The position numbers and the translations under genes were made by a program. From a virus: 64,000 nt of DNA. The notes beneath the pieces are model-generated. The model had not been told where the DNA came from. It worked only from the letters and a program-made list of their open reading frames with translations, and searched no databases. This document shows positions 990-62,464 of the stretch, in pieces; position 1 is the first letter of the stretch, and each line of letters begins with the position of its first letter. The stretch covers positions 5,053 to 69,052 of the IMG/VR virus record IMGVR_UViG_3300013233_000137; one strand, given 5' to 3'.

Positions 990-990
990 T

Positions 991-4947: not shown

Positions 4948-4999
4948 TGGCCTTGGCCTTGGCCTCGGCCTTGGCCTCGGCCTTTGATTTAGTAAATTA
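4948..4999. repeat. (T[T/C]GGCC)n microrepeat ending in a palindrome variant
   Basis: tggccttggccttggcctcggccttggcctcggcctttgatttagtaaatta. Confidence 0.85.
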
Positions 5000-5010
5000 A
5001 ATTAGATCGA

Positions 5011-5502
5011 CTAAAGTCTCATAAGTACCTCGCCCTCTGGTAATGGGCAGTTCTTTATCCATACCATATTCTCTTTCACTTTCCAACCTTGGGTGTTGAC
5101 CCCGTCCAAATTAACTCCTTGGAAGACGTTAAGTCGAAGGGATTTATTTGCCTGTGGATGCAGCAAGAGTATATTTTGTAGACTTATATAAGGCCCTACA
5201 TCTCGCTGCTCGTGTAATGTCAAGGTCACACCATCGAGGAGACTAAGAACCGCTAAAAAAGCCAGATACTCATCACATTTAGCCGAGTACATTATGACCT
5301 TGGCACTTGTCTCTTTTCTTATTTTGCAGATGGTACTGATGACCCATTTTTGCCTTAGCATTGGCTCCCCACCGGTTAGGTAGATTTCACTATAACCCTC
5401 ATAGCTATCAATAATAGGAAGGGAAGAGAGGTCCCAATCTTTATTGCAGCATCCAGCGCAATTCCTATTACATAGTTCAAACATCAAGAGTCGAAGTTTC
5501 AT
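5011..5502 (-). CDS. Radical SAM protein
   Basis: CNRNCAGC (CxxxCxxC) and LTGGEP. Confidence 0.85.
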   Translation of the reverse strand: MKLRLLMFELCNRNCAGCCNKDWDLSSLPIIDSYEGYSEIYLTGGEPMLRQKWVISTICKIRKETSAKVIMYSAKCDEYLAFLAVLSLLDGVTLTLHEQRDVGPYISLQNILLLHPQANKSLRLNVFQGVNLDGVNTQGWKVKENMVWIKNCPLPEGEVLMRL

Positions 5503-5520
5503 TTTGAACTCCTCGGCCTT

Positions 5521-5615
5521 GGCCATTGATTTGGCCTACGGCCTTTGATTTGGCCCATGGCCTTTGATTTGACCTCGGCCTTTGATTTGACCTCGGCCTT
5601 TGATTTAGTAAATCA
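5521..5615. repeat. Half-site array: TGATTT at 5527, 5546, 5565, 5583, then full palindrome at 5601
   Basis: 18-19-bp units such as GGCCTTTGATTTGACCTC. Confidence 0.9.
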
Positions 5616-5666
5616 CTCAATATAAGTACCGTAAACAGTGATACCCTTTCCTGTTAGTATTAGTTC

Positions 5667-5840
5667 CTAGGTGGCTCTGTCGCCCTTCTTAAGCATCTGC
5701 CAAACACGGCCATAGTAGCCGTGGTCGATCCACCGTTGGATCTTGCGATACATGTACCAGCTAACATCCTCGTACCGATATATCTTGTCATTTGCCAGGA
5801 TTTTCAGCTCCCCGTAATCGTTCCACATCAGTACTCGCAT
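5667..5840 (-). CDS. Hypothetical protein
   Basis: ORF with AGGAGG RBS. Confidence 0.55.
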   Translation of the reverse strand: MRVLMWNDYGELKILANDKIYRYEDVSWYMYRKIQRWIDHGYYGRVWQMLKKGDRAT

Positions 5841-5851
5841 GGCTCCTCCTT

Positions 5852-6076
5852 TCAATCCATAGCATCCATTAAAAGATTTATTTGCCTTTGGGACATTACG
5901 AGTAACTCATCGCATATTTCTTCCGCTTCTTTGTCCTTGTTTTTAATACTAACTTCCCTGCAAAACTTTATTGTATGTTTTTCTGGATTGCCATCTAAAA
6001 AGCAATGTAAACTTGGATGGCTATCTCTTTGAGTTTTAAGCTCATAAGCAAGTAATCTTTTTAATATAGAGGTCAT
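5852..6076 (-). CDS. Hypothetical protein
   Basis: ORF with ATGA overlap. Confidence 0.55.
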   Translation of the reverse strand: MTSILKRLLAYELKTQRDSHPSLHCFLDGNPEKHTIKFCREVSIKNKDKEAEEICDELLVMSQRQINLLMDAMD

Positions 6077-6462
6077 TGTGATCTTTTCTCCTTAGGGCGG
6101 CTCTGCCTCCTCTCAATATGCGTCTTACCCCAAACCCGTAGATTCTTGAGGTCCCCATCGACCAACTCCCCTGTACCCTTTTGACCTGTTACCTTGGTTA
6201 CTATCCCTTCACCGTAGTAGAAGATCGTGGGGTTGTCGAGCTCCACTCCTTGGCCATCATCACTACGGGCTTCGTCGGCGAATATCTCGCAAACCAATTT
6301 GCCCCGGAATACCGGGATACGTAACTTGGATACATTCCAAGTGACAGTTGGCTTCCCCCGTCTTGGGACGGTGATGTGAACCTTGTCTACTTGCTTACAG
6401 GAAAGTAGATATGCACACCATAGCAGTAGGGCTATGAGAACTGCAATTAAGGCCTTAGTCAT
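6073..6462 (-). CDS. Membrane-anchored or exported protein, possibly LptC-like
   Basis: N-terminal hydrophobic helix followed by a beta-rich IFADEA...LDNPTIFYY...VTGQKG...LRVWG segment. Confidence 0.5.
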   Translation of the reverse strand: MTKALIAVLIALLLWCAYLLSCKQVDKVHITVPRRGKPTVTWNVSKLRIPVFRGKLVCEIFADEARSDDGQGVELDNPTIFYYGEGIVTKVTGQKGTGELVDGDLKNLRVWGKTHIERRQSRPKEKRSQ

Positions 6463-6588
6463 AGTCTCCTTCCTCTAGGCCGAAGAATCTGGCGGCCTTC
6501 GTCATCAAACAGAATCCCCACCTTCCGTACTTTGCCTTTGGAATCCGGTACAAGCTTCGTGGTCGGGCACAATTTGTTCATTGGTTTA

Positions 6589-6840
6589 TTATTCATTCCA
6601 TCCCTCCAAAATATCGACAAATTCTGAGACCGTATAGACCTCATCCAAGACCGAACCAACCATGAATCGGACCCTACCCGTACCACATAAATGGACTGAG
6701 ACAGGGTCATGCTCATCTACTTTCCCCAGTATAGCCACTACATACTCCAAGCATTCTCTCATTTTCTGCTTGTCATAGGTTATGGTCACCTTATTCTCCT
6801 TTTTAATTGAATACACGTTTGAGCATCTTCCTCTTGCCAT
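6589..6840 (-). CDS. Hypothetical protein
   Basis: 83-aa ORF. Confidence 0.5.
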   Translation of the reverse strand: MARGRCSNVYSIKKENKVTITYDKQKMRECLEYVVAILGKVDEHDPVSVHLCGTGRVRFMVGSVLDEVYTVSEFVDILEGWNE

Positions 6841-6979
6841 TTACTTCTTGCCAAACAGTTCCCCGCCAAAGGTTGATACCCCTGGCATGGTAGAAATTAC
6901 TTGTCACTGTCTTGAAGCGCTTACCATCCCTATCTATACCTGTTATGACGTAGCTCACCATGTTCTCCTCTATTCTGTC

Positions 6980-7210
6980 TTAGGATTTAGCTTGTGAGCG
7001 ATGAGTAAAAGTCGAAATGATCACATAACTAGGGAGTAAATCTTTCTCCTTTCTGCAACATCTGGGTCTCTTGCAGTTTTTTATTATTTTAATTTTATGT
7101 CCAATATCCCTTCCATTGACTATTTTACTGCCAACCTTTCTTAATCCCAAACAATCACAATCAAATTCTAATATCTCCATCTCAGTTTTTATAAGATCTT
7201 TTATCACCAT
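6980..7210 (-). CDS. Hypothetical protein
   Basis: ORF with AGGAGA RBS. Confidence 0.5.
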   Translation of the reverse strand: MVIKDLIKTEMEILEFDCDCLGLRKVGSKIVNGRDIGHKIKIIKNCKRPRCCRKEKDLLPSYVIISTFTHRSQAKS

Positions 7211-7446
7211 GTTCTCCTTATCGCAATTTCTCCTGAATGAAATTGACTTACTAAATCAAATTCTTCTTGATACTCACAGATTACAGCTGGGAGCCCTGTA
7301 TCTGGACCACTGAAATACCTGGCCAAATATCCCATGCCATCAACACTACTACCGTCGATAGCCGTGAACTCAATATCCTGGCTCTCCAAGACCTCTTTCA
7401 ACTCCTGACAAGCTCCACACATTGCTCTGGTTATTATCGTCATCAT
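7204..7446 (-). CDS. Glutaredoxin/NrdH-like protein
   Basis: TRAMCGACQELKEVL (CxxC) and cis-Pro-like LPAVI; 80 aa. Confidence 0.75.
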   Translation of the reverse strand: MMTIITRAMCGACQELKEVLESQDIEFTAIDGSSVDGMGYLARYFSGPDTGLPAVICEYQEEFDLVSQFHSGEIAIRRTW

Positions 7447-8174
7447 AGTCCTCCTTGCAGATAAGAACAGATCAGCTCACAAATCGGTGTATACTCTATA
7501 ACCGGGTCCCCACGCCTGAAGTACATCTTGTTCGGCCTATTCTTGGCAGGCCAAGATCCTGGTGCTCTTTGACTGAAGGCCACTGGGTTGGTGGTCTTCT
7601 GTACTTCTCCTCCACTCATCTTCGGCCCAGGAAAGTTGCCCTCCCACTTCTCGCCATATATCCAGAGATAGAAGGGGTTATCATAGGCCAACCATTTCAT
7701 AGAGGCCGGTGGACGCTTCCTCAGAACCATATAGGCCATGAATATGCTATTCATATGTTGATTTAGTAAATCAAACCTGTTCAACCAGCCGAATAGCCAA
7801 CCAAACTTCACCATGAACTCCGCTTGTGGTATTGGATTGAAGGGTAGAGGCAGCTCTGTATACTCACTGGCCCACCATAGTGCCGCCGGTCCAGCAAAGG
7901 ACTGCTTCTTACGTTTTATCCACCATCCGTCACAGGGCTCCCAGTCAGGACCAACTTGAATAGGGGCGAAGTTCCTGGCCTCATCACTAAGCTCAAGGAG
8001 CTGGGTTATCCACTTCTTTGAAGCTGACCAAACTACTTTATCCCCTACTATATGTGCAGCTCCACATAGCATTGAGATGTGGAATAAGCCGTCGATATAG
8101 TTAGAATACCTGAAGGGTATCACCTGACTATATCCGGTCTTGAAACTGCTTAGAACCTTTTCCCTAATACTCAT
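7443..8174 (-). CDS. Hypothetical protein
   Basis: 243-aa Trp-rich ORF with ATGA overlaps. Confidence 0.7.
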   Translation of the reverse strand: MSIREKVLSSFKTGYSQVIPFRYSNYIDGLFHISMLCGAAHIVGDKVVWSASKKWITQLLELSDEARNFAPIQVGPDWEPCDGWWIKRKKQSFAGPAALWWASEYTELPLPFNPIPQAEFMVKFGWLFGWLNRFDLLNQHMNSIFMAYMVLRKRPPASMKWLAYDNPFYLWIYGEKWEGNFPGPKMSGGEVQKTTNPVAFSQRAPGSWPAKNRPNKMYFRRGDPVIEYTPICELICSYLQGGL

Positions 8175-8683
8175 GGTGCCCTTTCCATATCAAAAGGAAA
8201 ACGTCTACGAATAGCTTCTATCTCCTTCGCTGTGAAGATGTGCTTACGCTTGGCCGCAGTGATGTTGAGATGTGGTAACTTATAGTGAGTAACATCGAGG
8301 CACTCAAGTAGAATGTCAAAGTCTCGTTGGAAATGGTAGTAGTTAATAAGCTGTATACAATCCTCCAAATGGAAATGTATACGATCCTGGAAATAGGTAT
8401 GCCGATATTGATTTATGAAATCAAGCATACCATATCGCCACCATTCACGATTCAAGTAATACCAGGACGTTATCACGTCGAAGATACATCGAGTATTGGA
8501 TACGATGATCTCCCCTCCTATAATGGCCTTCTGGACTTCTTCACTACCATATCTAATATGGTGTTCCTCCGTTACGATGGCTTCGGGGTAGATATCATTG
8601 AGAGCCGTTTGAACGGATGTCGAGCCTGTGCGCGGTGTACAGAGGTAGACCACTTTCCCTGGGACAATCAGTGCCATTGGCAT
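8171..8683 (-). CDS. Sulfotransferase-family protein
   Basis: PAPS 5'-PSB-like TPRTGSTSV and 3'-PB-like RCIFDVITSWY. Confidence 0.7.
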   Translation of the reverse strand: MPMALIVPGKVVYLCTPRTGSTSVQTALNDIYPEAIVTEEHHIRYGSEEVQKAIIGGEIIVSNTRCIFDVITSWYYLNREWWRYGMLDFINQYRHTYFQDRIHFHLEDCIQLINYYHFQRDFDILLECLDVTHYKLPHLNITAAKRKHIFTAKEIEAIRRRFPFDMERAP

Positions 8684-8788
8684 CTCCTACATAGACCAGA
8701 ATATTGGAACTCCTCCACCTCTTCGGAGTTACGGAAGCTTGAGATCTTTACCCAGCTTCCACATTTCACACATGGTTTACCTTTGTCC

Positions 8789-9850
8789 TTAATCCTGACG
8801 CGTTCTCCAGAATCGCGCTTCTTGCGGGATGCCATCTTTAGTTACTCCTCTATATCTAAACGTTATAATCATGCCACGTGGGAAGTGGACCGCTTCCACT
8901 TCTTCAGGGCATATCGTCTCGGGGTGCTCAATAGCCCACTCCGTGTCATTGAGCACTCGCTCCTCATCAGTGAATCCTGATAATTCAAGCCTCTTACCAT
9001 TGGAGAGCTTCACGATCATGGCCCCCATTTTCCCAAGGAGCTTCGACCCCTTATTCGTTTGCCTACCAGTGATGTAGCCGATAACCGTACCTTCCGCGTC
9101 CTCGGTCTTCTTCATCTTAAGCAGATCATGGCTTCTAATGGACCCCCACATGCTTTCTGGTTTGCGAAGCATGACACCTTCTCCTCCGGCTTCGCTAATC
9201 TCGTCAAGTGTTTGATTTACTAAATCAAGGGCCGCTGAACTCTGGAACGGTAGTTGCATTTGTGGATGTGGCCTGGTAACAGCACTTCTGGCGTATTTCT
9301 GTAGCAGCCTATAGACACTTGTGAAAGGCGTCCCCCGCTTCGGGATGTAGACCAAGCTCGAGATATCCGTATCCTCATAGATCCATTTCTGAATATCGGT
9401 GAATCGCTTTTGGAAGTTGATTACATCTATTAGTCCATCGTCGAAGACCACATCCAAACAGGGCATATCAAAGGCCCGAAGGGTGATGCCATCCCAATTA
9501 ACGCCATGGGTATTCTTGACCTTGCTCATGAGATCCTGACGCTTCATATTTCCATAAAGTTCCCCGTCTAAGGGAACTTTGGGCATAAGATCCAGATAAT
9601 CAGGAGGAGCATGGATAACATTGCCATAGCGTGACCACAAGCCAGTAGCAATTGGTTTAGCAACATACCGTTCATCCTTATCCGTATTAGCCCAAGGCAC
9701 ATTCTCCTTGAGCATCCCGCGAGTTAACCCGCCGTCCCAAAAGCATCTCATACCGTCGAGCTTCTCCGATAGGAACCAACCACCTAGACTTGGGGCTCTA
9801 GGCCCGGCTTTATAGGTTTGGGCGAGCATCAGGAATTGTCGTTTAGCCAT
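8789..9850 (-). CDS. ATP-dependent DNA ligase
   Basis: SEKLDGMR (KxDG), LDGEL, AFD, EGVMLR, LKMK. Confidence 0.92.
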   Translation of the reverse strand: MAKRQFLMLAQTYKAGPRAPSLGGWFLSEKLDGMRCFWDGGLTRGMLKENVPWANTDKDERYVAKPIATGLWSRYGNVIHAPPDYLDLMPKVPLDGELYGNMKRQDLMSKVKNTHGVNWDGITLRAFDMPCLDVVFDDGLIDVINFQKRFTDIQKWIYEDTDISSLVYIPKRGTPFTSVYRLLQKYARSAVTRPHPQMQLPFQSSAALDLVNQTLDEISEAGGEGVMLRKPESMWGSIRSHDLLKMKKTEDAEGTVIGYITGRQTNKGSKLLGKMGAMIVKLSNGKRLELSGFTDEERVLNDTEWAIEHPETICPEEVEAVHFPRGMIITFRYRGVTKDGIPQEARFWRTRQD

Positions 9851-9858
9851 TGGTTCTC

Positions 9859-10404
9859 CTAGTAAACTGGATTGCAAAACTCCACGGTACAACCACACTC
9901 ACATAGATAATCCCCATCGGCATCGGGTTCGAGCCGTTTGATAACATCGCACTCTGGACATTGGATCTCAATGACATCATCCATAAGAATATCTTCAGGT
10001 TCTGAGAGTACCTCACCCTCAACAGTCTTATCCTTGGGAGCCTCTTGCACGCGCTGAGCCAATTTGCTCCCACAACTAAGGGCCACGGGTGCAGCATTGA
10101 GCTCGAAATGTTCTTGACACATATAGCCCCATCGTCCACTTGTAGTCGGGGCGTCATAAACTGCTGGCTTGTTACAAAAGGTGCACTTCGGTATGGTGTT
10201 GAGTCTTACGATCTTCATTTTTGGTCTCCTGAGTTTGCTTCCACAAATAGACGCCCATGGTAGGGCATTAAGATTGAAATGCTTTTGACATAGGTTTTGC
10301 CACTTTATACCTTTCACAGGGGCATTATAGAGTGCAGGCTTATTGCAAAAGGTACATCTCGGTATTGTGCTAACAATAAAGGTACTCATCTCACCAGTGC
10401 TCAT
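9859..10404 (-). CDS. Multi-zinc-finger protein with internal duplication
   Basis: Two IPxCTFCNKPA.Y.AP....W...CQxHF repeats, then CPEC/CECG. Confidence 0.7.
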   Translation of the reverse strand: MSTGEMSTFIVSTIPRCTFCNKPALYNAPVKGIKWQNLCQKHFNLNALPWASICGSKLRRPKMKIVRLNTIPKCTFCNKPAVYDAPTTSGRWGYMCQEHFELNAAPVALSCGSKLAQRVQEAPKDKTVEGEVLSEPEDILMDDVIEIQCPECDVIKRLEPDADGDYLCECGCTVEFCNPVY

Positions 10405-10443
10405 CCTGTTCTCCCTGGGCAGGGCCGCCTCTGATTTAGTAAA

Positions 10444-11253
10444 TCATTTGAAATACCATTTCCATTTGGAGGGGAACTTTTCCATCCGCTTGGTAATGAG
10501 TTCTTTCTCTTCCCCAGGGATAGAACCTTGCCAACCGAAGTATAGCTCATGGGAATGATCATACCAAATTACGTTGTCAATTGGTACATGATTATCAATA
10601 AGCCACTTAAAGATATTATACTCCATTTTAGCATCTTCGACCTTCATTGAGAGACACTCTAACTTCTTTTCATAACTTGCTTCAAGATGTTTGAGTTCGG
10701 CCTCTTTACTAATAGCCAAGTAACGATCAATAAACTCCTTTGAAGGCATCTTATCCCTCTTGACCTTGTACTCATTGACTATAGCAATAAGTTGTAGAAG
10801 TGGCAAGTCGGCTTCCTTTAGGTACGAGACACCTAAACAAGCCTCGCACCACTCCCCTTCCTTACGATCTGTATATTGCTTTCCGCAATAACCACACCTT
10901 ACTGTTTGTGAACGGGTCTCAACCATCTCAGATGTTTGTTCTAACCAGTAACCGGTGTAGGTTAGGCCATGAGAATCACGGTAGTGCCGCCAGTCAAAGA
11001 TACGTGCACCAGATTCAGCGATGCAACCATCTACAGTATTCCATTGATCTTGGAATAGGAACAAGGGATCGAGCTCGACATCTTTGCCGTCATACTCTTT
11101 AACTTGTGCATGAAACTCATAGTGACTCGGATCCATATCATAGGCGTCGAACTCATGTAGGCCCATGCCTTTGAGTTTGGTACGCAATTCTTTATACCCT
11201 TCTTTGGTTGCGAAGTCGAACCAATGTAGCTTAGTCCTTAAGATTGTTTTCAT
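10444..11253 (-). CDS. Hypothetical protein with CxxC pairs
   Basis: 269-aa ORF; stop codon lies in the palindrome at 10432. Confidence 0.7.
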   Translation of the reverse strand: MKTILRTKLHWFDFATKEGYKELRTKLKGMGLHEFDAYDMDPSHYEFHAQVKEYDGKDVELDPLFLFQDQWNTVDGCIAESGARIFDWRHYRDSHGLTYTGYWLEQTSEMVETRSQTVRCGYCGKQYTDRKEGEWCEACLGVSYLKEADLPLLQLIAIVNEYKVKRDKMPSKEFIDRYLAISKEAELKHLEASYEKKLECLSMKVEDAKMEYNIFKWLIDNHVPIDNVIWYDHSHELYFGWQGSIPGEEKELITKRMEKFPSKWKWYFK

Positions 11254-11303
11254 AACGTTCTCCTGATTGATTTAGGCGGCTCTGCCGCCATTGATTTACT
11301 AAA

Positions 11304-11507
11304 TCACACATGTAGAAAAAGTCTTTGTCCTTTGGACTCGATCCAATAGGATGCGACATTGGAGTAACAGGTGGCATATACCCTATACCATCTGTTACTA
11401 TGGAAAGCCTTTTGATTGGTGGCTATCCTTTTCCCATATCCATAGTGAGTACGAGGAGCCGGATCGGCCTTTATCTCTGTATCGTATGGCAAATATTTGA
11501 TGCCCAT
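11304..11507 (-). CDS. Hypothetical protein
   Basis: ORF; stop codon lies in the palindrome at 11292. Confidence 0.6.
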   Translation of the reverse strand: MGIKYLPYDTEIKADPAPRTHYGYGKRIATNQKAFHSNRWYRVYATCYSNVASYWIESKGQRLFLHV

Positions 11508-11845
11508 CTTATTCCCCTAAATCATTGATTCCACGAGATCCACAACGCCTTTGATTGCTTTCACCTCTGCATAACTAAGGATCGTGAAGCACCAGAAAGT
11601 GACTTGATTACTTTCCATAAGCAACTTAAAGTTCTTGTCCTTACGTCTAATGCTCCTCTGTACACCTTCCTTGCAGTACATCTTCGTTCTGATTGCATAC
11701 TTGTTCATGATTGGCCCTCCTGTAGCCATAGAACTCGTCAATATAGTCTACCTCCTCATCTTCAATCAACCCATCCAGGGCTTCCTCGATGAGGCATACC
11801 ATACAATTTAATTCCAATTGCAACTCTAAGACTGTCATTGGTCCC

Positions 11846-12028
11846 TCATTCAATAGACTCAGGATCTTTGCTCTCATGGCAAGCCTCCAGGAATTTCGTG
11901 ACATTGAATCTCCAATTTTGACAAGCAAACCATTGTGCAAAATGGGATACTAGTCTATCCTTTGCAGGACTACTCTCCTCTTCACTGAAGATCTTTGTTA
12001 TTTCTTTGAGGTGTTTTCTTGTAAGCAT
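11846..12028 (-). CDS. Hypothetical protein
   Basis: 60-aa ORF with AGGAGA RBS. Confidence 0.55.
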   Translation of the reverse strand: MLTRKHLKEITKIFSEEESSPAKDRLVSHFAQWFACQNWRFNVTKFLEACHESKDPESIE

Positions 12029-12180
12029 AGTATCTCCTTAGCGATTGAAATGTGTTTACAGGTTCCTCTGTAGAAGAACCCACGGCAAGTGCAACTGAAC
12101 TCGCTATCAATAACTCGTACAATATACTTCTGCCCCTCACCACTTGGTCTACTTATTTCAACCCATGTTTTCTCTCCCAT
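11998..12180 (-). CDS. SWIM zinc-finger protein
   Basis: FSCTCRGFFYRGTCKHI (CxC...CxH). Confidence 0.75.
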   Translation of the reverse strand: MGEKTWVEISRPSGEGQKYIVRVIDSEFSCTCRGFFYRGTCKHISIAKEILCLQENTSKK

Positions 12181-55330: not shown

Positions 55331-55615
55331 TTATTGGCTAATACGTACAACTGCATTTCCACTGATGTACTCCCCGGACTTGAAACCTATACGGTAATGT
55401 ATACCTTGTTCTGGATCATCACCTACTTTTTGACCACTGGCAGTGAATTGGTATATATCATACCAGTTTGCCCCATCGAAAGAACGTTGGAGGGTTATTG
55501 TTCCAGCCCATGTTCCAGCTACAGAAACATTAAAGGTCGAAGCAGGTAACTGTACTACGGCCCACTGATCTGCACCAGTAAGCGTGGCTTCAACCTCTGC
55601 AATTGCATTACTCAT
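55331..55615 (-). CDS. Small beta-sandwich virion protein
   Basis: VSVAGTWAGTITLQRSFDG. Confidence 0.6.
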   Translation of the reverse strand: MSNAIAEVEATLTGADQWAVVQLPASTFNVSVAGTWAGTITLQRSFDGANWYDIYQFTASGQKVGDDPEQGIHYRIGFKSGEYISGNAVVRISQ

Positions 55616-56100
55616 GATTGTGCTCCCTCGAAAAATGTTATTTGGGCATTCATTGTTTTATTATGCCATTCAAATGGCAAGGCATTCTCTGTCTCATTGG
55701 CGGTGAAGTACACCGCAAGTCTATGGTCATAGAAGTTTATTTCCTTCATCTCAAAACGTCTATGCTCATATACTACGCTCCAACCAAGGTCGATAGTTTT
55801 ATCTTTTGGGACATCACGCAGTTCAATAATGAAATCTCTAACTCCTAAGTCATAATAAGCACCATATTGGAAGTTCTTATTTGCCGCCAAGAAAGTTAAG
55901 TCATACGAGAATTTACGCGTAAGTCTTTTCGGAAGCAAAATAGCTCGCTTTACAGGTATGACCTCATAGGACTTAACTACCTCTCCAGTCTTTACATCAT
56001 TACTAACACTTGTGACCTTATACAGATATACCTTTGTGCCATACTCTCTCTTGAGTCGGTACAAAACGCGTCGCATTTGGATTTTGCCTGTATAAGACAT
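55612..56100 (-). CDS. Head closure-like protein
   Basis: First gene after the capsid gene; start MSYTGK. Confidence 0.55.
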   Translation of the reverse strand: MSYTGKIQMRRVLYRLKREYGTKVYLYKVTSVSNDVKTGEVVKSYEVIPVKRAILLPKRLTRKFSYDLTFLAANKNFQYGAYYDLGVRDFIIELRDVPKDKTIDLGWSVVYEHRRFEMKEINFYDHRLAVYFTANETENALPFEWHNKTMNAQITFFEGAQS

Positions 56101-56108
56101 ACTATTCC

Positions 56109-56231
56109 TTTTGATTTGGCCTCGGCCTTCTTTTGATTTGGCCTTGGCCTTCTTTTGATTTGGTAAATCAATGGCCGCGTAGCGGCGTAAATCAATGGGC
56201 CGCGTAGCGGCGTAAAGAAACGCCGCGTAGC
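56109..56231. repeat. Half-site array around TGATTTGGTAAATCA (56156)
   Basis: TGATTT at 56112, 56134, 56156; AAATCA at 56165, 56189; GC-rich spacers. Confidence 0.88.
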
Positions 56232-56240
56232 AGAAAATGG

Positions 56241-56268
56241 TGGGAGGCCGACCTGGGCCGGCCTCCCA
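56241..56268 (-). terminator. Terminator-like hairpin after the capsid gene
   Basis: TGGGAGGCCG...CGGCCTCCCA. Confidence 0.65.
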
Positions 56269-56278
56269 GCCGATGGCA

Positions 56279-57661
56279 CTAGCCGAGGAGCACAGCACCA
56301 AGATTCGTATCCAGAACCTTCACGCCACCCAGCAGATCGACAGTAACCAAATGACCCTGGTTATTGCCATCATAGGTGATGGTGGTACGAATTGCAATAT
56401 TATTGTAATTCGCAACAGCAGAAAGGGCACCAGCACCAGGACGCGGAGTCGCAAGAGGCCGACTGACAAAGGCAATGGCATTCCGATGGAAAGCGAAGTT
56501 ATAGCTTCCAGCAGGACCAATATTCACGGTGACATTATCAGCAATAGCAGCTTCCAGAGGACGATCAAGAGTGATACCAGTAGTACCAGTAACATCAATA
56601 ATCGTGTATACAGCAGTCGCAGTTGAAGTACCGAATGCCACAAACTGTCCAACCTGTGGAGCAACTGAGAACCCGTCAACGACAATTTCCTTGGCCCAAT
56701 TAGCAGCATAGCCCGCTACCAAATTAACTGCCCCAGGGGTATAGATGGTGATGACTGCATTATCTACAACCGCAGTCTTCAGACCAGTCAGAACAGTAAT
56801 GGCAGTCGGGGTAGCACCACCAACGGTGGACACAACTCGCAGAGGAGTCATATCGCCTGCAATGGTGATATAGCTACCTGCCGAGATCGCTGCACTGAAA
56901 CCATCAACCGTAAAGGTCTTGACTCCAACTGCATACCCTGCAGCATTGTTAATTGCCCCGGTAACAGTGGTATTACCAATTGAGACATAAGGCATATTCT
57001 GAGCCATGAAGTTATTAAAGCCCAGTTTACGCCCCATGCTCGCTTCCCGCAATGCCGTACCATTGTCTCCAACCTTATCAGCGGTGAGGAAGATATCGGT
57101 ATTAAGGGCTTCAGTCTCGCCATCAGAGTTCCAAATGAGGTTACGGCCATTGACAAACGCCTTATTCTCATTCATAACCTTACGAGTATCAAGCATATAC
57201 TGCTTAGCAGTGGTACTTGAAAGGCCACCAAGAATACCTGCACTGTTCGCAAGGAACTGAGGATACTGACCAAGCACGACCTGATCAAGGGCACTGGCAA
57301 TGGAGATGACCGCGGGCTCCAAATGGGTGGTGACCAGGTCCTTCATGGACTTCGATTCCTCACCGTCATAAATCATGAAACTGGTATGGAAATGCTGGTC
57401 CAACTTGACCTGAATATCAGTGGTATTCGCAGCCTGAACGGTGACCGAATCTGAATCAGTTTTCCGTTTAGCAGTAAAAGACCCGGGTTGACTGGTGTGA
57501 ACCATATCGCCAAACCTCGCAATCTCATCAGAGAAATCGCGGTGAACCAAATTGGTAACCACCATATTCTCAGTCAGAATTGCGAGTGCCTCATTCGACC
57601 AGATCTCCGGAATGAGGGCATCATTAGAGTTACCATACCACAGTCTGTTACGTTTGAACAT
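56279..57661 (-). CDS. Major capsid protein (P22-coat-like, with inserted beta domains)
   Basis: LIPEIWS, LVHRDFS, GDMV, NFAFHRNAIAFVSRPL, DLLGGVK. Confidence 0.88.
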   Translation of the reverse strand: MFKRNRLWYGNSNDALIPEIWSNEALAILTENMVVTNLVHRDFSDEIARFGDMVHTSQPGSFTAKRKTDSDSVTVQAANTTDIQVKLDQHFHTSFMIYDGEESKSMKDLVTTHLEPAVISIASALDQVVLGQYPQFLANSAGILGGLSSTTAKQYMLDTRKVMNENKAFVNGRNLIWNSDGETEALNTDIFLTADKVGDNGTALREASMGRKLGFNNFMAQNMPYVSIGNTTVTGAINNAAGYAVGVKTFTVDGFSAAISAGSYITIAGDMTPLRVVSTVGGATPTAITVLTGLKTAVVDNAVITIYTPGAVNLVAGYAANWAKEIVVDGFSVAPQVGQFVAFGTSTATAVYTIIDVTGTTGITLDRPLEAAIADNVTVNIGPAGSYNFAFHRNAIAFVSRPLATPRPGAGALSAVANYNNIAIRTTITYDGNNQGHLVTVDLLGGVKVLDTNLGAVLLG

Positions 57662-57670
57662 GTTGCTCTC

Positions 57671-58480
57671 CTATATTTTACTGAGGTCAATCTTGCCCTC
57701 TTTACGGGCCTTAAGATATTCCTCTGTAGTCATCTTCGCGGGGTTTACACTACCTCCGCCAGTATCACCCTGAGTATTCATTCCCAAGCCACCTTTGACA
57801 TTGGATTTGAAGAGGTTACCATACTTCTCAGGCATCTTCTTCATTACTTCCACTGCCTCATTGACTTTAAGATCCAACTCAGTATCTTTACCATCTTGAT
57901 CTTTACCAGTGATCTTGACCCGTGAGACCAAGTTCCCTGTGGGATTACCGTCCTTATCCAATTCATCAGTTAAGGTCGTATTTGGACGCAAGATCGCAAC
58001 AATTTGTTCAGGGGAAAACGCATCACTTGCAACAGCTGCATCCGTTATAGTTCGTTGAATAGTCTCTCCAGTGTATCTATTTTGGAGAGACTCTAATTGA
58101 TTTTGTAAATCAGAAATCTTCTTCTCATTCTCGGCTTTGATTGCTTCCTCATTCTGTTTGGCCAGCTCCTCTTTGGTCTTGAGGCTATCTGAGAGCTCCT
58201 TAACACGCTTCTGAAGGGTGATCTTCTCTTCAGCGGTTAGAGAACCTGACTTGGCCTCTGAGAGTTGTCCTTCAAGCTCTGTAACCTTCGTCTGCAAATT
58301 ACGACGATTCTTTGCCATAATTGCATTGACTTCATCCTGAGTGAAGGTCTTAACTGGCGGATCTCCTGCTGGCGGATCTCCTGCTGGCGGATCTCCTGCT
58401 GGCGGATCTCCTGCTGGCGGATCTCCTGCTCCAGTATCCTCACCATACCACAAACGGCTCCTCGGCATTTCCTCGTACAT
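57671..58480 (-). CDS. Head scaffolding protein
   Basis: KTFTQDEVNAI, coiled coil, C-terminal MTTEEYLKARK; upstream of the capsid gene. Confidence 0.85.
   Translation of the reverse strand: MYEEMPRSRLWYGEDTGAGDPPAGDPPAGDPPAGDPPAGDPPVKTFTQDEVNAIMAKNRRNLQTKVTELEGQLSEAKSGSLTAEEKITLQKRVKELSDSLKTKEELAKQNEEAIKAENEKKISDLQNQLESLQNRYTGETIQRTITDAAVASDAFSPEQIVAILRPNTTLTDELDKDGNPTGNLVSRVKITGKDQDGKDTELDLKVNEAVEVMKKMPEKYGNLFKSNVKGGLGMNTQGDTGGGSVNPAKMTTEEYLKARKEGKIDLSKI
58354..58428. repeat. 15-bp tandem repeat x5 (AGDPP)
   Basis: CTGGCGGATCTCCTG x5. Confidence 0.95.
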
Positions 58481-58490
58481 TCCTATTCTC

Positions 58491-58937
58491 CTATGTTGCC
58501 CTATTAACCTGCATCGTCTCTGGGTCATCTAAATACGGCTTCAAATATTGCCAAGCTAAGGAGCTAGGAATACCGGCCAAAAGATGCTCTGGAACGAATG
58601 AACGGTCATAGGTAGACCTCGCACTTGCGAGTCCTTGTGATTTCATACTTAATAATTCCACTTCACGCTCAGGCTCGATACCATCAAGCAATGCAAATGC
58701 GGCTTCGGCGCAGGCATACTGGATATCGTCGGGGATCGTGGTGTCGTCATAGCGCGGAAACTGATTTGCTTGGGTATCACTATTCTTCCTACCAACGAAA
58801 TTCAGTCTATCAATACGTATCGTGGACTCTGCGAGGGCTTTGGTCTTATCGGCATCACTAGCATTATCCCAGGAATCCACATTATATCTGGAAGTGAAAT
58901 AGGTATCGGCATCAGCTACGGTAATATATGCAGTCAT
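58491..58937 (-). CDS. Head-tail adaptor (DnaT-like family)
   Basis: YITVADADTYF, QFPR, IQYACAE, LKPYL. Confidence 0.75.
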   Translation of the reverse strand: MTAYITVADADTYFTSRYNVDSWDNASDADKTKALAESTIRIDRLNFVGRKNSDTQANQFPRYDDTTIPDDIQYACAEAAFALLDGIEPEREVELLSMKSQGLASARSTYDRSFVPEHLLAGIPSSLAWQYLKPYLDDPETMQVNRAT

Positions 58938-60703
58938 TTCGCACTCCCACGGGTTTTATCTTTAATAACTACATCTTGTGTCTTGTCCTTCTGGGACTGG
59001 GTCTTCTCCAAAACTGGAGAAGAAGGATTGGCATCCAGAGCTGCTACACCTCTGGCAGCCGCATTAGTTTGAGCAAGGACTATACGGGCTGCACGTTCCG
59101 CATGTTCAACCTTGGCCTTCTCAACCTCCCCTTCGGGGTAACCCTTAGCCTCAGATGCAGTCTCAACACTTAATAGTCCCTGCTCAATATCTTGAGATAT
59201 CGTATCGGGATCAAGAACCGGAATATCGGAGTTATCGACCTCACCATATATGGTATTAAGGGTCTCTACACCAACTTTATCGGTAAGAAGTGCATGAGCA
59301 ATATCCTTTGAAAGTTCCTTCTGATAGGTCTTCGACCCCACTTGGCTACGCAGTTTGGCTTTCGACTCTGCCTCCACAACTCGTTGTGCGTCGGTTTTAA
59401 GACTATAATGAGTTGGGTACTTCACCGTAGCAGATCGTCTTGAGGACTCGTACATCGCCCATAGTTCCGCTATGCGATTCTCCCCAGATTCCAATTCCTG
59501 TCCAATGTAACTCAACCCAGCCTCCAATGACTGGGAATCCATGGCCTTCGACTCGGCACTAGCTTCACGCCTCGGGATAAGGTTTGATACGGCGAGGTTT
59601 ACGAGGAGCTTGATATCCCGTTTCAACTGCTCTTGCTTCTCCATGCTGACTCGGAGAGGCTCTGGACTGGGACTAATATAGGCAGGTCTCTCGGTGTTGA
59701 TTGGATAACGACGCCCCCGTGTCGCACCCGTCACTAACTCCTGGGCCTTACCTGTTGCCGCAGAAGCCGCAGTTCCCGGTTGATTTACTAAATCAGTTTC
59801 CGAACCATCGGCATTGTAGGTCGGGCTCGAATATGTATTATTCTGACGTAGATGACCGGAGACTCGCCTTGGGTCATACTGCTCTGTATAGAATGGGAAA
59901 TTGGATTTGAAGCTATAGTTCATATCCGCCGAGGCGAGGTTCAGAAGTGATATCTGAATATCAGCCACGTCTGTTAGGAGGGACTGACTTAACTCCATAG
60001 TAAGGAATGGGATATTAGGGATGTTGAGTACTCTCTCCGATATCTGCTCACCGTCCTTATCATACAAGATCGCCAATACGCCTTCGGAGACTAACCGCAG
60101 ATAACGGTACTGCTTGACCAATTTGATTGGGAGCTGTGTTAGGGGATCGGTCTCATACACATGGTCTCTAAGTAGTATCGCAGCAAACTGCCCGGGGTTG
60201 TCATCTAAATACGACCAAGAACGAATGTCTTGAGCCTCATAGGTATAGATATAAGGGTTCTTACCTATCTGCTCAAGCTGTGTGGCTCCGGGCTCATTAG
60301 TCATATCGACGAAGATCCCTACCTTCCCGATGGAGAGCAAACCTGGAAGGACGCTTGCACCAATAAAATTATTCATGGTACTTGACTTCCGGTCCACGCC
60401 TTTGTCTCTACCAGCCACGGCATTCATATAGCTCGGAGTGCCCTCGCGACGGGTGATGTCCACCATCCTCTGGAAGATCGAGTTCTTGATCTCGTTGATA
60501 GCCGCCTTAGCGAAGGCTGGGACATAGGAGATCTTCTTACGGTTAGAGAAATCCCACTTGTCCTCCCGCTGAGAGAACTTCTGAAGGTACTCCTCAAGGA
60601 AGGCATGACCACCCTCATAGGCTAAGGCATACTTATCCCAGAGTTCTATCATCTTCTCGTAAGTGGGGTGTTTAACTTGGTAGATCATTCTATATCCTAT
60701 CAA
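58934..60703 (-). CDS. Portal protein
   Basis: 589 aa following the terminase; HPTY, YEGG, SAESK. Confidence 0.82.
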   Translation of the reverse strand: MIGYRMIYQVKHPTYEKMIELWDKYALAYEGGHAFLEEYLQKFSQREDKWDFSNRKKISYVPAFAKAAINEIKNSIFQRMVDITRREGTPSYMNAVAGRDKGVDRKSSTMNNFIGASVLPGLLSIGKVGIFVDMTNEPGATQLEQIGKNPYIYTYEAQDIRSWSYLDDNPGQFAAILLRDHVYETDPLTQLPIKLVKQYRYLRLVSEGVLAILYDKDGEQISERVLNIPNIPFLTMELSQSLLTDVADIQISLLNLASADMNYSFKSNFPFYTEQYDPRRVSGHLRQNNTYSSPTYNADGSETDLVNQPGTAASAATGKAQELVTGATRGRRYPINTERPAYISPSPEPLRVSMEKQEQLKRDIKLLVNLAVSNLIPRREASAESKAMDSQSLEAGLSYIGQELESGENRIAELWAMYESSRRSATVKYPTHYSLKTDAQRVVEAESKAKLRSQVGSKTYQKELSKDIAHALLTDKVGVETLNTIYGEVDNSDIPVLDPDTISQDIEQGLLSVETASEAKGYPEGEVEKAKVEHAERAARIVLAQTNAAARGVAALDANPSSPVLEKTQSQKDKTQDVVIKDKTRGSAK

Positions 60704-62306
60704 AAATGTCCTGGCTACCTGCCATCTCCGCCGCGAAGTTCAAGGCCACCTCATTATATACACGTGAATGAGTGTAATGATCGGCACTCGACCCCTCTAC
60801 ATACCTCGCTACGGGGTTGCCATTGCCGTCTTTCTTGTAAATCCGCACTGGAGCCTTAATCTGATCGCGATACTCAATGCCGGTATCCACTGGGAGGGTT
60901 ATCGACTTGTTCCGAAAACGGCTCAAGGCGACATCCATCCAGGATGTTCTATCTACTGTAACGGTATGCTCCATCTCCTTGTGAATCGAGATTTGTTTAC
61001 CTTGTATCCCTTGTCCATAGAAACAGGTTTTCACATATCCGTTGAAATTCTGAGCGAACTCGAAGCTTTTCCGGCGTTCAGGCTGGGCATCGATAACCGC
61101 GTACTGCACGGCCCATTTCCTCATAAGGGCGTTCAGTTCATTAAATGTCCTCACTTTACCGAACTCCAAAACCTTGCATCGGGCTTCGATGTTCAGGTCA
61201 TCTGTGACCATATTGGCCGGGAAACGCCACTCATCGACCTCATAGTTAATCCAAGTACCAACGTCAACACCCATAGTCACGATACCTGTGGGGGTTGACA
61301 TCTGGTTCTTATGTTCTCCAATACATTGATCCAGGTCACCATCCGTGACACGCGCACCATCAATAATATGCGTTAGGCCGAGCTTCGAGTTGAAGAACTC
61401 CTGTTCATCGGCGACGTTATTCAGGGACCCCTCATACGCCTTCGATAACTCCGCAGGCGTTATCATCATGCTGTAGAGCTGGTTGATATAGAATCCACGG
61501 TCATCGGCTTCTTGGGTAGGCATCCAGAAGCCATCTGCTAGCCATTCTTGTTTGGTTTCATGGGACAGCGTGCTTTTGCACGCTGTGCAGATCAGATGGC
61601 TATCCTTACCATCGAAGACTATGGAATCCGGATACTGGAGTTCTATGCTCCTCGAACAATGAGGGCATCTAAACATGAAATGTTCTTGTGTAGATGTCTT
61701 GAACCGCTTATTAATGCCGTGGTCATCTATACTCGGGGTCGAAATGCCCCAAGTTTGTTTCTCCAATTGTCCACTTGTGCGCTCGAAGACCAGCGGTATA
61801 TTGTCTTGGGTCATCTCCTCGATCTCGTCGAGGATTATGAGTCCCACTGGTACGCTCTTCAAACCTGCCCGTGACCGACTGCCACGTATGTAGATGTTCG
61901 CAGTTCCAGCTCTCTTATGGCCTATGTTCTTAGTGTCCGTGAATAACGTCTGGAGGTAAGGGCTTAACTCCACCGCCGGGTCGAAACGGGCAGAGGAGAA
62001 GTCACTGGCGTCAGGCGTTTTCGCAGGTAGAACATAGAGCACTGAAACCGCGTTTATACCGACCTCGTAGAATACCTTATTAAGAACTGTCTCAGTATAA
62101 CCCATCTGGGCCGCTTTCTGGCCCCATACAAATGGGCTTTTGGCGTCGTGCATCTCCCGTAACCAAGGGTGATGCTCAAACGTCCAAGGACCGGAGAACT
62201 GACCGCCCATTACGCGGTACGTTTCGGCCCATTTCGAGCAACTGGTTATCGACCTCTTAGTGAGACCTGCCGCGATACGCGACACGAATTGCTCGGCGAT
62301 GTCCAT
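60690..62306 (-). CDS. terL: Terminase large subunit (lambda gpA-like)
   Basis: KAAQMGYTE, LDEIEE, ISTP, CPHC, GVDVG, DHYTH. Confidence 0.92.
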   Translation of the reverse strand: MDIAEQFVSRIAAGLTKRSITSCSKWAETYRVMGGQFSGPWTFEHHPWLREMHDAKSPFVWGQKAAQMGYTETVLNKVFYEVGINAVSVLYVLPAKTPDASDFSSARFDPAVELSPYLQTLFTDTKNIGHKRAGTANIYIRGSRSRAGLKSVPVGLIILDEIEEMTQDNIPLVFERTSGQLEKQTWGISTPSIDDHGINKRFKTSTQEHFMFRCPHCSRSIELQYPDSIVFDGKDSHLICTACKSTLSHETKQEWLADGFWMPTQEADDRGFYINQLYSMMITPAELSKAYEGSLNNVADEQEFFNSKLGLTHIIDGARVTDGDLDQCIGEHKNQMSTPTGIVTMGVDVGTWINYEVDEWRFPANMVTDDLNIEARCKVLEFGKVRTFNELNALMRKWAVQYAVIDAQPERRKSFEFAQNFNGYVKTCFYGQGIQGKQISIHKEMEHTVTVDRTSWMDVALSRFRNKSITLPVDTGIEYRDQIKAPVRIYKKDGNGNPVARYVEGSSADHYTHSRVYNEVALNFAAEMAGSQDIFDRI

Positions 62307-62322
62307 CGTTGTCGGCTCCTCG

Positions 62323-62464
62323 GCCTGTCGGGCTTTGATTTGCCCTGTCGGGCTTTGATTTGCCCTGTCGGGCTTTGATTTGCCCTGTCGGGCTTTGATT
62401 TAGTAAATCAAAGGCCGGGGACCGGCCTAAATCAAAGGCCGGGGACCGGCCTAAATCAAAGCCC
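62323..62464. repeat. Symmetric half-site array between terS and terL
   Basis: 20-bp unit (G)CCCTGTCGGGCTTTGATTT x4, the last running into the core at 62396, then 24-bp unit TAAATCAAAGGCCGGGGACCGGCC x2. Confidence 0.93.

Follow-up and report, generated by a model that had tools for sequence, protein, structure and literature searches.

Introduction

Canonical parS and NBS are even-length palindromes, and plasmid RK2 carries twelve OB sites. Plasmid iteron and centromere arrays, such as sopC of F and parC of R1, consist of short protein-binding repeats in tandem with a regular spacing and in some cases lie on both sides of a promoter; the sopC and parC arrays are conserved, essential and paired with a partition NTPase. 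The ParB-family protein Noc nucleates at numerous palindromes dispersed along a chromosome and then spreads (excerpt of PMC8429893). KorB is described in an excerpt of PMC11790492 as a CTP clamp of the ParB family with a second role in global repression; it loads at a palindrome, OB, that occurs in dispersed copies and the core of which (TTTAGCGGCTAAA) has an odd length and a central G/C. Cluster A mycobacteriophages have 20-30 stoperators, the sites of one phage protein, over a genome of ~50 kb; these lie mostly away from promoters, with the true operators at the early promoter (excerpt of PMC6550527).

We analysed a stretch of 64,000 nucleotides (the window) from the 69-kb contig of an uncultured phage (G000), which has 57 copies of the palindrome TGATTTAsTAAATCA (the full site, with ≤2 mismatches) at a density of ~1 per 1.2 kb, genes included. 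TGATTT and AAATCA are its left and right arms, or half-sites. The NBS of Bacillus subtilis, where Noc is a ParB paralogue, are 16-bp sites of even length on the host chromosome and are far sparser than one per kb, whereas the phage site is an odd-length palindrome of 15-17 bp that lies on the phage and is forced into ORFs. Odd length and a central G/C are common to the phage site and the OB core as given in the excerpt, which describes no tandem half-site arrays for OB. RK2 has far fewer sites than the phage, and its ParA partner IncC and the clamp-locking KorA and TrbA had no counterpart among the phage ORFs scanned. Stoperators have a density similar to that of the phage full sites but are asymmetric, co-oriented with transcription and bound by a monomeric immunity repressor (L5 gp71-type) of temperate phages that acts in lysogeny. 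The phage site is palindromic, about one-third of its copies are deep within ORFs, and repressor, integrase and parA were not found in the ORFs scanned. The sopC and parC type of array resembles the 13-bp-pitch clusters at 12849-13143 and 23859-24405 (Table 1); the GC-spacer arrays described below differ from it in being confined to one lineage, in their variable pitch and in the lack of a ParA among the scanned ORFs.

Results and Discussion

The full site is under selection at the DNA level

Shuffled versions of the window contained a mean of 0.44 full-site matches (maximum 3; 100 shuffles), compared with the 52 found. Exact copies numbered 37 in the 69,052-bp contig and the reversed control gave 0. 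The relative G001 had 71 full sites. Aligned genes and segments of G000 and its relatives were merely 64-86% identical in nucleotide sequence, yet the sequence of the palindrome was identical, and 7 of 11 mappable positions were kept between G000 and G001 in either direction. Full sites were also more evenly spaced than random (CV of 0.64 in G000 and 0.70 in G001 versus ~0.97 for random placement; P≤0.0005).

The exact motif encoded 22 of the 24 DL[LV]N[QH] pentapeptides in G000 ORFs and 16 of the 17 in G001 ORFs; G008, G009, G003 and G004 had 0-1 such pentapeptides. Orthologues without a full site carried different residues at that position, mostly with no indel. Full sites are written into ORFs by substitution, which forces the DL[VL]N[QH] pentapeptides. 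Taken together, the identity in diverged relatives, the even spacing and the ORF pentapeptides demonstrate strong DNA-level selection on the palindrome.

Half-sites also occur in clusters. In G000, two promoter regions are bordered by TTGATTT/AAATCAA clusters with a 13-bp pitch, and such clusters recur in G001 (Table 1). These conserved clusters, and the finding that TGAGTT and TGATTT arms are interchangeable in G008, support the view that the half-site behaves as a functional recognition unit of its own.

Table 1. Features of the phage contig. Coordinates are those of the window; TRF, Tandem Repeats Finder.
Feature	Position	Strand	Details
Full sites, n=52 in the window	78..63132	.	≤2 mismatches to the 15-bp palindrome
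Sixth array, outside the window on the same contig	-3315..-3232	.	Spacer GGCCGCTCTGCGGCC
(CCTTGG)n GGCC microsatellite adjoining one-mismatch full site 4985-4999	4945..4999	.	Period 6, 6.7 copies
Array: 4 extra left arms with GGCC-type spacers, then full site 5601-5615	5517..5615	.	TGATTT starts 5527/5546/5565/5583/5601, pitch 19, 19, 18, 18; upstream of start of gene 5011-5526(-); TRF 5517-5606: period 18, 4.9 copies, 83% matches
One extra left arm and hairpin GGCGGCTCTGCCGCC, then full site 11292-11306	11268..11306	.	Pitch 24; spacer folding energy -10.4 kcal/mol
Two half-site clusters (12849-12913, 13103-13143), 13-bp pitch	12849..13143	.	Flank AT-rich ~190 bp region upstream of sigma-factor gene 12153-12830(-); G001 equivalent 74674-75038
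ParB1, 298 aa, ParB_N + HTH_ParB + KorB-domain match	17629..18525	-	Second candidate binder
ParB2, 316 aa, ParB_N + HTH_ParB	21980..22930	-	First-choice candidate half-site reader
Divergent regulatory region with full sites at 23859 and 24391	23859..24405	.	Half-site clusters 23887-23925 and 24311-24362, downstream of sigma70-like promoters 23993-23965(-) and 24255-24283(+); G001 equivalent 4276-4767
Full site 44474-44488, two extra right arms, 10-bp-stem hairpin on left	44441..44522	.	Pitch 19, 15; terminator-like calls on both strands
Full site 50698-50712 at tip of 18-bp hairpin	50685..50725	-	Orthologue in G001
Array: 2 extra left arms, one-mismatch full site 56156-56170, 1-2 extra right units	56108..56231	.	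TGATTT starts 56112/56134/56156 (pitch 22, 22); AAATCA 56165/56189 (24; right units 24-25); between capsid-gene terminator and next gene; TRF 56108-56163: period 22, 2.5 copies, 97%; TRF 56163-56231: period 25, 2.9 copies, 87%
Intrinsic-terminator-like hairpin, canonical, 12 pairs, tail CCATTTTCTG	56241..56268	-	Right after major capsid gene, upstream of array
Array: 3 extra left arms, full site 62396-62410, 2 extra right arms	62323..62464	.	TGATTT starts 62336/62356/62376/62396 (pitch 20, 20, 20); AAATCA 62405/62429/62453 (24, 24); TRF 62324-62401: period 20, 3.9 copies, 100% identical units; TRF 62404-62461: period 24, 2.4 copies, 100% identical units

Arrays of half-sites adjoin six intergenic full sites

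Inspection of the loci confirmed the five window arrays reported in an earlier note, with their coordinates and pitches. Every array adjoins a full site, and all six on the contig are at intergenic copies, among them the junctions of major late genes (capsid/next gene and TerS/TerL). The note had TGATTT copies extending to the left and AAATCA copies to the right of the full site, and indeed, across the six arrays, all 18 of the 18 extra half-sites were oriented toward it. Its claim that each array is symmetric did not hold, the left/right numbers of extra arms in the five window arrays being 4/0, 2/1, 3/2, 1/0 and 0/2. Same-orientation half-site pairs 15-25 bp apart occurred 15 times in the window, compared with a mean of 0.28 (maximum 2; n=200) in first-order Markov sequences and of 2.06 (maximum 8; n=2000) when the same 158 hexamers were placed at random. 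The arrays are far beyond chance.

Array copy numbers were taken from a metagenome assembly, and units of 18-25 bp at 100% identity are hard to count. That short-read assembly mis-built or mis-counted the tandem units is nevertheless scarcely credible: the same architecture, with different spacers, was found at six separate loci, the arrays (40-140 bp) fall mostly inside one read length, and their flanks are unique, with intact genes on both sides.

Spacers differed from locus to locus and units were near-identical within each locus, which supports an independent origin of the arrays at each locus, as the earlier note had proposed. Its further proposal of convergence on about two helical turns was not borne out: the pitch is the length of the arm plus the local spacer. 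Over all arrays it ranged from 15 to 25 bp (mean ~21 bp), with values per array of ~17, 18.5, 20, 22, 23 and 24 bp, a spread in helical rotation of about ±100 degrees, and helical phasing is therefore loose. Similar spacers were seen at separate loci (GGCGGCTCTGCCGCC at 11268 and GGCCGCTCTGCGGCC at -3315; ACGGCTACGCCA at three G001 sites), which hints at copying between loci or hairpin selection, beyond local slippage. GGCC was enriched near full sites in G000 (86/310 within 100 bp versus 16% of the genome) and not enriched in G001 (6/83).

The arrays are young and not conserved

Among G000, G001, G007, G008 and G009, GC-spacer arrays were found in G000 only. None was detected in G007, G008 and G009, and G001 had one extra arm at each of just two loci, which differ from those of the G000 arrays. 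The earlier note had named absence of the arrays from close relatives, together with unprotected half-sites, as pointing to neutral slippage and against its own reading; the arrays are largely absent from the relatives compared, although the nearest of these are rather distant (aligned segments are 64-86% identical). In G001 and in L231/L232 TerS lies directly next to TerL, and G000 has an insert of ~190 bp at this junction that contains the array at 62323. The units there are 100% identical, so this duplication is recent. We conclude that the arrays are young, phage-specific and not conserved. Our favoured reading, held with middling confidence, is that they are tandem duplications at six intergenic copies of the palindrome, added on to a conserved lattice that a ParB-type protein most likely binds.

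Alternatively, the extra arms may have been selected and kept as nucleation hubs for cooperative polymerisation of the site-binding protein, with a centromere-like or silencing function. This would fit the invariable association with a full site, the preserved arm orientation, the position at late-gene junctions and the mean pitch; the single extra arms at two G001 loci suggest that the tendency recurs, and the promoter clusters show functional use of multi-arm arrangements. We consider such hubs rather unlikely, since the arrays are not conserved at the same junctions in G001, G007 and G008, identical units indicate a very recent event at one locus, the pitch of 15-25 bp differs from the 13 bp of the conserved functional clusters, and neither ParA nor a lysogeny or plasmid module was found in the scanned ORFs.

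Hairpins in the spacers

Of 12 spacer types, eight folded at -4.6 to -10.4 kcal/mol, two were marginal (-2.1 kcal/mol) and two unfolded. The self-complementarity that the earlier note described for most spacers is in part automatic, because GGCC is its own reverse complement.

A unit of GC hairpin followed by TTTGATTT as the U-tract resembles a Rho-independent terminator, and the arrays might be tandem terminators or insulators in which right units stop sense (minus-strand) transcription and left units antisense transcription, a flanked full site forming a convergent terminator pair. A simple consensus scan of 44001-64000 gave 22 terminator-like calls (15.4±3.8 in shuffles), nine of which fell on units of the arrays or on hairpins directly beside a full site. 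Arrays come after the ends of genes, for example capsid and TerS, and the palindrome forms the tip of a long hairpin with a U-rich tail at 50698 and in its G001 orthologue. Relative to the genes, however, 13 of the 18 extra units are antisense, and the array on the capsid side already has a strong canonical terminator ahead of it. Four of the 12 spacer types show little or no folding (0 to -2.1 kcal/mol). Hairpins beside full sites were overall no commoner than background (G000, 17% left and 8% right versus 11.5%; G001, 6% left and 8% right versus 5%), and relatives do without terminators between TerS and TerL. Moreover, unlike in terminators, the T-tract of the arrays belongs to a palindrome, as one of its arms, and this palindrome is also found without hairpins and inside ORFs. 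A terminator function of the arrays is therefore improbable.

The earlier note had also considered branched ssDNA or RNA. On this reading the arrays would work as groups of hairpins, either in the transcript or in ssDNA at replication or packaging, and would need no dsDNA-binding protein. The three large array regions do fold far better than shuffles (-100.3, -85.2 and -45.3 kcal/mol; z=-6.1, -6.0 and -3.2), which inverted repeats do by construction. The hairpins at 50698 and in G001 (-25.5 kcal/mol with z=-3.8 and -32.4 kcal/mol with z=-6.4, respectively) have wholly different lower stems, so that the structure was kept by compensatory change. Speaking against a need of the core site for a hairpin, 7 of 19 sites in G008 were hybrids (TGAGTT...AAATCA) with broken arm pairing; neither these nor the mismatches confined to one arm in G000 and G001 had a compensating change. 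Left and right spacers of the arrays were not complementary to one another, the direct repeats of the promoter clusters cannot pair, the arrays are not conserved, and no Rfam family matched. We regard this explanation as very unlikely.

Candidate proteins reading the half-site

The closest solved relatives of ParB1 and ParB2 are Noc, Spo0J, ParB and KorB. By sequence, the best for ParB1 were Noc chains (E=1e-17); ParB1 also matched KorB 8qa8 (E=1e-4) and passed the Pfam cut-off for the KorB domain (25.9 versus 22.3 bits). In relatives, TTGAT/ATCAA repeats lie between the promoter and the start of parB2. At least two repeats were present in the 150 bp upstream at 14 of 30 parB2 loci (mean of 1.47 versus a background of 0.70), a modest enrichment, with at least three at 7/30 loci and none at 10/30. 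Besides sigma factors, no other recognised family of sequence-specific dsDNA-binding proteins was found in the ORFs scanned; many ORFs had no family at all, and any of these could encode the full-site binder. We infer that the best candidates belong to the ParB family, chiefly ParB2, because its gene is just downstream of TTGAT-type repeats in many relatives, and then ParB1. The recognition helices of both proteins are conserved even in relatives without dispersed sites, and ~66 of 70 ParB1-bearing loci had no dispersed palindrome, so the presence of ParB does not explain site dispersal.

Scans of 25 + 74 ORFs of the window and of 100 of the 125 ORFs called in the complete G001 detected no family of ParA, integrase or CI-type repressor. 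A role of the sites as a partition centromere is therefore unlikely, which speaks against the centromere-like hubs of the earlier note, whose interpretation as a whole is partly supported.

A proposed lattice with local additions

We propose that the conserved system consists of the full-site lattice, ~1.2 kb apart, with sites placed at gene junctions wherever space allows and otherwise written into ORFs, and that the denser 13-bp-pitch clusters around the two early promoter regions would be part of it. The arrays would be additions outside this system. What is duplicated is an arm (TTGATTT) together with the neighbouring GC-rich spacer of GGCC type, which in many cases forms a small hairpin like those at the ends of genes, and replication slippage would be the simplest route to the tandem copies. 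Because the unit is an arm with its adjacent spacer, left arms stack to the left, right arms stack to the right, and the pitch follows the length of the two. The arm is probably the recognition unit of a conserved dimeric DNA-binding protein of the phage, most likely of the ParB family. Such a protein would load at full sites, like Noc at NBS or KorB at OB, and the arrays would locally increase the number of its binding units.

Structure and origin of the half-site arrays

All arrays of tandem arms listed in the earlier note are present at the pitch described, and Tandem Repeats Finder also calls them. They are not a product of chance: the window holds 15 pairs of same-orientation half-sites (TGATTT or AAATCA) 15-25 bp apart, compared with a mean of 0.28 pairs in Markov sequences (maximum 2; 200 sequences) and of 2.06 after random placement of the same 158 hexamers (maximum 8; 2000 runs). 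A sixth array was found a little beyond the window edge, at -3315..-3232. All 18 extra arms of the six arrays are oriented as had been claimed, with TGATTT to the left and AAATCA to the right of the full site TGATTTAsTAAATCA. Copy numbers and spacers are unequal on the two sides, and the case for phasing at about two helical turns is weak, given a pitch that spans 15-25 bp. The spacers had been called mostly self-complementary; eight of the 12 types do fold, the remaining four being weak (-2.1 kcal/mol or weaker) or non-folding, and GGCC is self-complementary by nature.

Units within an array are near-identical (100% at the TerS/TerL junction), and spacers differ between loci. TerS and TerL abut in the complete relative phage G001 and in two metagenome relatives, and are separated by an insert of ~190 bp in our contig, G000. 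The arrays are missing from the nearest relatives: G001 carries a single extra arm at each of two other loci, and G007, G008 and G009 carry no extra arms. Only in G000 does GGCC cluster near full sites, and GC hairpins beside full sites are no general feature of the system. A (CCTTGG)n microsatellite adjoins the site at 4985, indicating that array-type junctions are prone to slippage. In the simplest account, an arm would have been duplicated in tandem along with the GC-rich spacer next to it, recently, at a handful of junctions and in the G000 lineage alone. Spacer types recur at different loci, and copying from one locus to another, or selection acting on the hairpin, may therefore have contributed. 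From these sequence comparisons, the best reading of the arrays, whose copy numbers come from a metagenome assembly, is that they are young and unstable expansions, specific to this lineage, at copies of a conserved palindrome.

GGCC occurs at expectation in G000 (310 observed, 315 expected) and is depleted in G001 (83 observed, 125 expected). G000 also encodes a C5 cytosine methylase (3004-3807, minus strand) with no homolog in G001; in a PDB search its matches were confined to the catalytic core of M.HhaI. This enzyme may protect GGCC, its candidate specificity, and so permit GGCC-rich spacers.

Alternatively, the array units could be intrinsic terminators, and by a simple terminator consensus they provide 9 of the 22 calls in 44-64 kb. 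An intrinsic terminator would combine a GC-rich stem of five or more pairs with a T-rich tail behind it, and would lie in sense orientation at the 3′ end of a gene. However, 13 of the 18 extra units are antisense to genes and five are in sense, the capsid-side array is already preceded by a canonical terminator, and the weak folding of four spacer types also argues against this function. One full site does form the tip of a long hairpin (50685-50725) that is conserved via compensatory change. A U-rich tail follows this hairpin in G000, and its ortholog in G001 (33254-33302) has entirely different lower stems; the two probably represent a terminator that is conserved among the tail genes. On the branched structures considered in the earlier note, the array regions do fold well as RNA, but Rfam covariance models gave no match in the whole window at gathering thresholds.

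A palindrome dispersed over the genome

We consider the lattice of full sites a more remarkable feature than the arrays. TGATTTAsTAAATCA occurs 52 times in the window (at most two mismatches) versus 0.44 expected, and 57 times in the contig. It is a perfect palindrome except for the central G/C, which is G in 19 and C in 14 of the exact sites in the window, without strand bias. The identical motif is present in 71 copies in G001, whose genome (84,413 bp) is collinear with G000 and alignable in just 26 segments of 64-86% identity. Of the 11 G000 sites in aligned segments, 7 coincide in position with a G001 site, and the count is likewise 7 of 11 in the other direction. The sites are more evenly spaced than random placement would predict (CV 0.64 in G000 and 0.70 in G001 versus ~0.97; P ≤ 0.0005). 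G007 has 13 copies. G008 carries 19 sites built from TGAGTT and TGATTT arms (11 symmetric G-type, one T-type, seven hybrids), which suggests that specificity has been relaxed or shifted at arm position 4. The relatives G009, G010, G003 and G004 have zero dispersed sites.

Many sites lie at most 70 nt upstream of a start codon (27 of 57 in G000, 39 of 71 in G001), where they often abut the Shine-Dalgarno sequence; 17 in each genome lie deep in ORFs, and 13 and 15, respectively, elsewhere. The palindrome has a single stop-free reading frame, encoding D-L-[V/L]-N-[Q/H]. The ORFs of G000 contain 24 such pentapeptides, 22 of them encoded by the exact motif, compared with 17 in G001 (16 exact), four in G007 and none or one in four other relatives. 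Orthologs without a site have unrelated residues at the aligned position, mostly with no gap. We conclude that the intragenic sites arose by substitution and that selection at the DNA level overrides the protein sequence.

A promoter function was rejected on two grounds: the site adjoins the Shine-Dalgarno sequence, often 4-20 nt from the start codon, and it also occurs inside ORFs. Site-specific recombination or a mobile element was rejected because the scans found no recombinase or transposase family and the intragenic sites arose by substitution; REP/BIME- or MITE-like repeats would be marked by a dedicated transposase (RAYT/IS200-type) or by terminal inverted repeats with target duplications, and a transposase family was absent from the scans of window ORFs and of 100 of the 125 G001 ORFs. 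The palindrome is best read as a conserved, strongly selected, putative protein-binding site.

Two of the longest site-free gaps, 50713-54838 (4141 bp) and 38822-41641 (2835 bp), cover the blocks 52039-54682 and 38620-41630, which are mostly without homologs in any of six compared relatives. These blocks may be recent acquisitions in which sites have yet to arise.

As a text string, the motif appeared in the literature only in an unrelated yeast paper, and the excerpts consulted held no description of a phage system of dispersed ParB-type palindromes. Among the at least 120 stretches listed from bacterial and archaeal genomes, matches were single per contig. In the search for closer relatives, a metagenome scan with TerL reached 69% identity at best, the loci retrieved with the capsid protein (L124-L131; 40-53% identity) had no repeated palindrome, ParB2 gave no cultured relative among GenBank phages (18 weak matches, all <60% identity), and megablast of 8 kb against phages gave zero matches.

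Half-site clusters and gene content

Two regions of the window hold arms packed more densely, as direct and inverted copies with a pitch of 13 bp, and equivalent clusters were found in G001. The back-to-back promoters next to the clusters at 23887-23925 and 24311-24362 are TTTACT-17-TATAAT (minus strand) and TTGACT-17-TATAAT (plus strand). Direct repeats and the hybrid sites of G008 are what one would expect if a protein recognised the arms singly, and not what one would expect of a hairpin. Overlapping arm doublets TTGATTTGATTT, offset by 5 bp, recur near regulatory clusters as a third arm arrangement beside the 13-bp and 18-25-bp pitches.

Positions of genes and arm arrangements (window numbering unless G001 is named)
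Feature	Position	Strand	Basis or context
Large terminase	60690-62306	-	Family scans
Portal	In window		Family scans
P22-type capsid protein	56279-57661	-	Family scans
Tape measure	45464-49474	-	Family scans
Primase-helicase	24777-27464	+	Family scans
Family-A DNA polymerase, SNF2 helicase, ligase	In window		Family scans
Sigma factors (two)	In window		Family scans
ParB1	17629-18525	-	ParB_N + HTH_ParB (family scans)
ParB2	21980-22930	-	ParB_N + HTH_ParB (family scans)
Half-site clusters	12849-12913, 13103-13143		Flanking AT-rich stretch upstream of sigma-factor gene
Half-site clusters	23887-23925, 24311-24362		Just downstream of back-to-back sigma70-like promoters
Arm doublets	22973-22992; G001: 4313-4346, 45208-45232, 74696-74757

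The IMG/VR contig (69,052 bp), of which the window is bases 5053-69052, is estimated to be ~75% complete, and family scans found a siphovirus-like gene set in the window. Integrase, ParA and CI-type repressor families were found neither in 25 + 74 window ORFs nor in 100 of the 125 G001 ORFs (the other 25 being mainly structural or long replication genes), and ParA was also not found among 70 ORFs compared with PHROGs. The centromere-like hubs of the earlier note thus lost ground: a partition centromere is unlikely because neither ParA nor any lysogeny module was seen in the ORFs scanned.

Several other genes were observed. A tail-fibre-like protein (41654-43384, minus strand) has the N-terminal domain Mtd_N (major tropism determinant); the family scans of window ORFs found no reverse transcriptase, and so gave no evidence of a diversity-generating retroelement. 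The scaffold-protein gene (57671-58528, minus strand) contains a perfect 15-bp tandem repeat, CTGGCGGATCTCCTG, at 58354-58430 (5.1 copies, 100% identical), which encodes a 5-residue repeat in frame. The SNF2 helicase has 641 aa and no intein in G000, and its G001 ortholog (1534-4338 of the retrieved locus L136) has 935 aa with an intein and a LAGLIDADG domain. A cluster at 27631-34051 encodes a MazZ-like dATP/dGTP diphosphohydrolase, a 428-aa MptE-like/nucleotide-sugar-transferase-like protein, a radical SAM protein, glycosyltransferases and a methyltransferase; homologs of the cluster's core genes are confined to G001, G007 and G008, which are also the phages with dispersed palindromes.

Candidate reader of the site

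Among the ORFs scanned, ParB1 and ParB2 are the sole recognised sequence-specific dsDNA-binding families beside the sigma factors, and from this we infer that a ParB-family protein is the candidate reader of the site. Each combines a CTPase-fold domain at the N terminus with an HTH; among solved chains, Noc, Spo0J and ParB are the nearest, and ParB1 also shows a weaker resemblance to KorB. ParB1 matches PF08535 KorB at 25.9 bits (cut-off 22.3; its G001 ortholog, 23.7 bits) and KorB 8qa8 at E = 1.2e-4, and its AGFRRF aligns with AGERRW of Noc. Upstream of parB2, many relatives have a promoter and then TTGAT/ATCAA repeats that lead straight into the start codon of the gene. This order would be the layout of an autoregulated gene; the link between ParB and the repeat is a positional one. 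The enrichment is modest, with at least two TTGAT/ATCAA in the 150 bp upstream of parB2 at 14 of 30 loci and a mean of 1.47 versus a background of 0.70. One argument against ParB is that its recognition helices are also conserved in relatives lacking dispersed sites; another is that the dispersed palindrome is absent at most ParB1-bearing loci.

The 152-aa protein encoded at 13144-13602, next to the half-site cluster near 13 kb, was tried as a binder and rejected; it has just six homologs, all unannotated, and its invariant Cys and His give it an enzyme-like look. For the clade-specific 165-aa and 134-aa proteins, the ESM Atlas provided no usable lead. Clade-specific genes lie at 20444-20941, 14301-14705 and 27461-27667.

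Comparison with known systems and implications

According to the excerpts consulted, Noc acts on scattered NBS sites (PMC8429893), KorB acts on OB, a palindrome of odd length centred on a G/C (PMC11790492), and stoperators are an analogue with dispersed sites (PMC6550527). As in ParABS, G000 has ParB with CTPase-fold and HTH domains, but a cognate ParA was not found. ParB1 resembles KorB in its KorB-type DNA-binding region, and G000 likewise has dispersed odd-length palindromes (57 sites), some at promoters; two sigma70-like promoters have clusters and full sites immediately downstream. Pfam and PHROG scans of window ORFs found no family of clamp-locking co-repressors like KorA or TrbA. Stoperators are asymmetric and oriented with transcription, whereas the G000 site is palindromic and without strand bias. 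Moreover, stoperator phages are temperate, with an immunity repressor and an integrase or parABS; neither the window nor the 100 of 125 G001 ORFs scanned yielded any of these. Dispersed binding sites are thus already known; what appears new is their imposition on coding sequence at ~1 per 1.2 kb, which the parts of these sources consulted do not describe for Noc/NBS, KorB/OB or stoperators.

We tentatively propose, as a possibility that is rather doubtful, that an apparently virulent phage has tiled its own chromosome with loading sites for its ParB/Noc/KorB-like clamp, every ~1.2 kb and in coding sequence, at the cost of a fixed DL[VL]N[QH]. The genome would then be coated, organised, self-marked or silenced by one protein, and the arrays would be hypervariable high-avidity hubs that tune particular gene junctions. 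The arrays matter less than the lattice; from them it can be seen that the arm duplicates as a unit and that the junctions are unstable, and as natural variants with 0 to 4 extra arms they are ready for binding and expression assays. Across the small clade of uncultured phages G000, G001, G007 and G008, the sites expand by degrees, from operators local to promoters up to a lattice over the whole genome. The clade therefore offers a natural series for asking how such a lattice evolves and what role it has, be it in genome coating, as transcriptional roadblocks or in self-marking.
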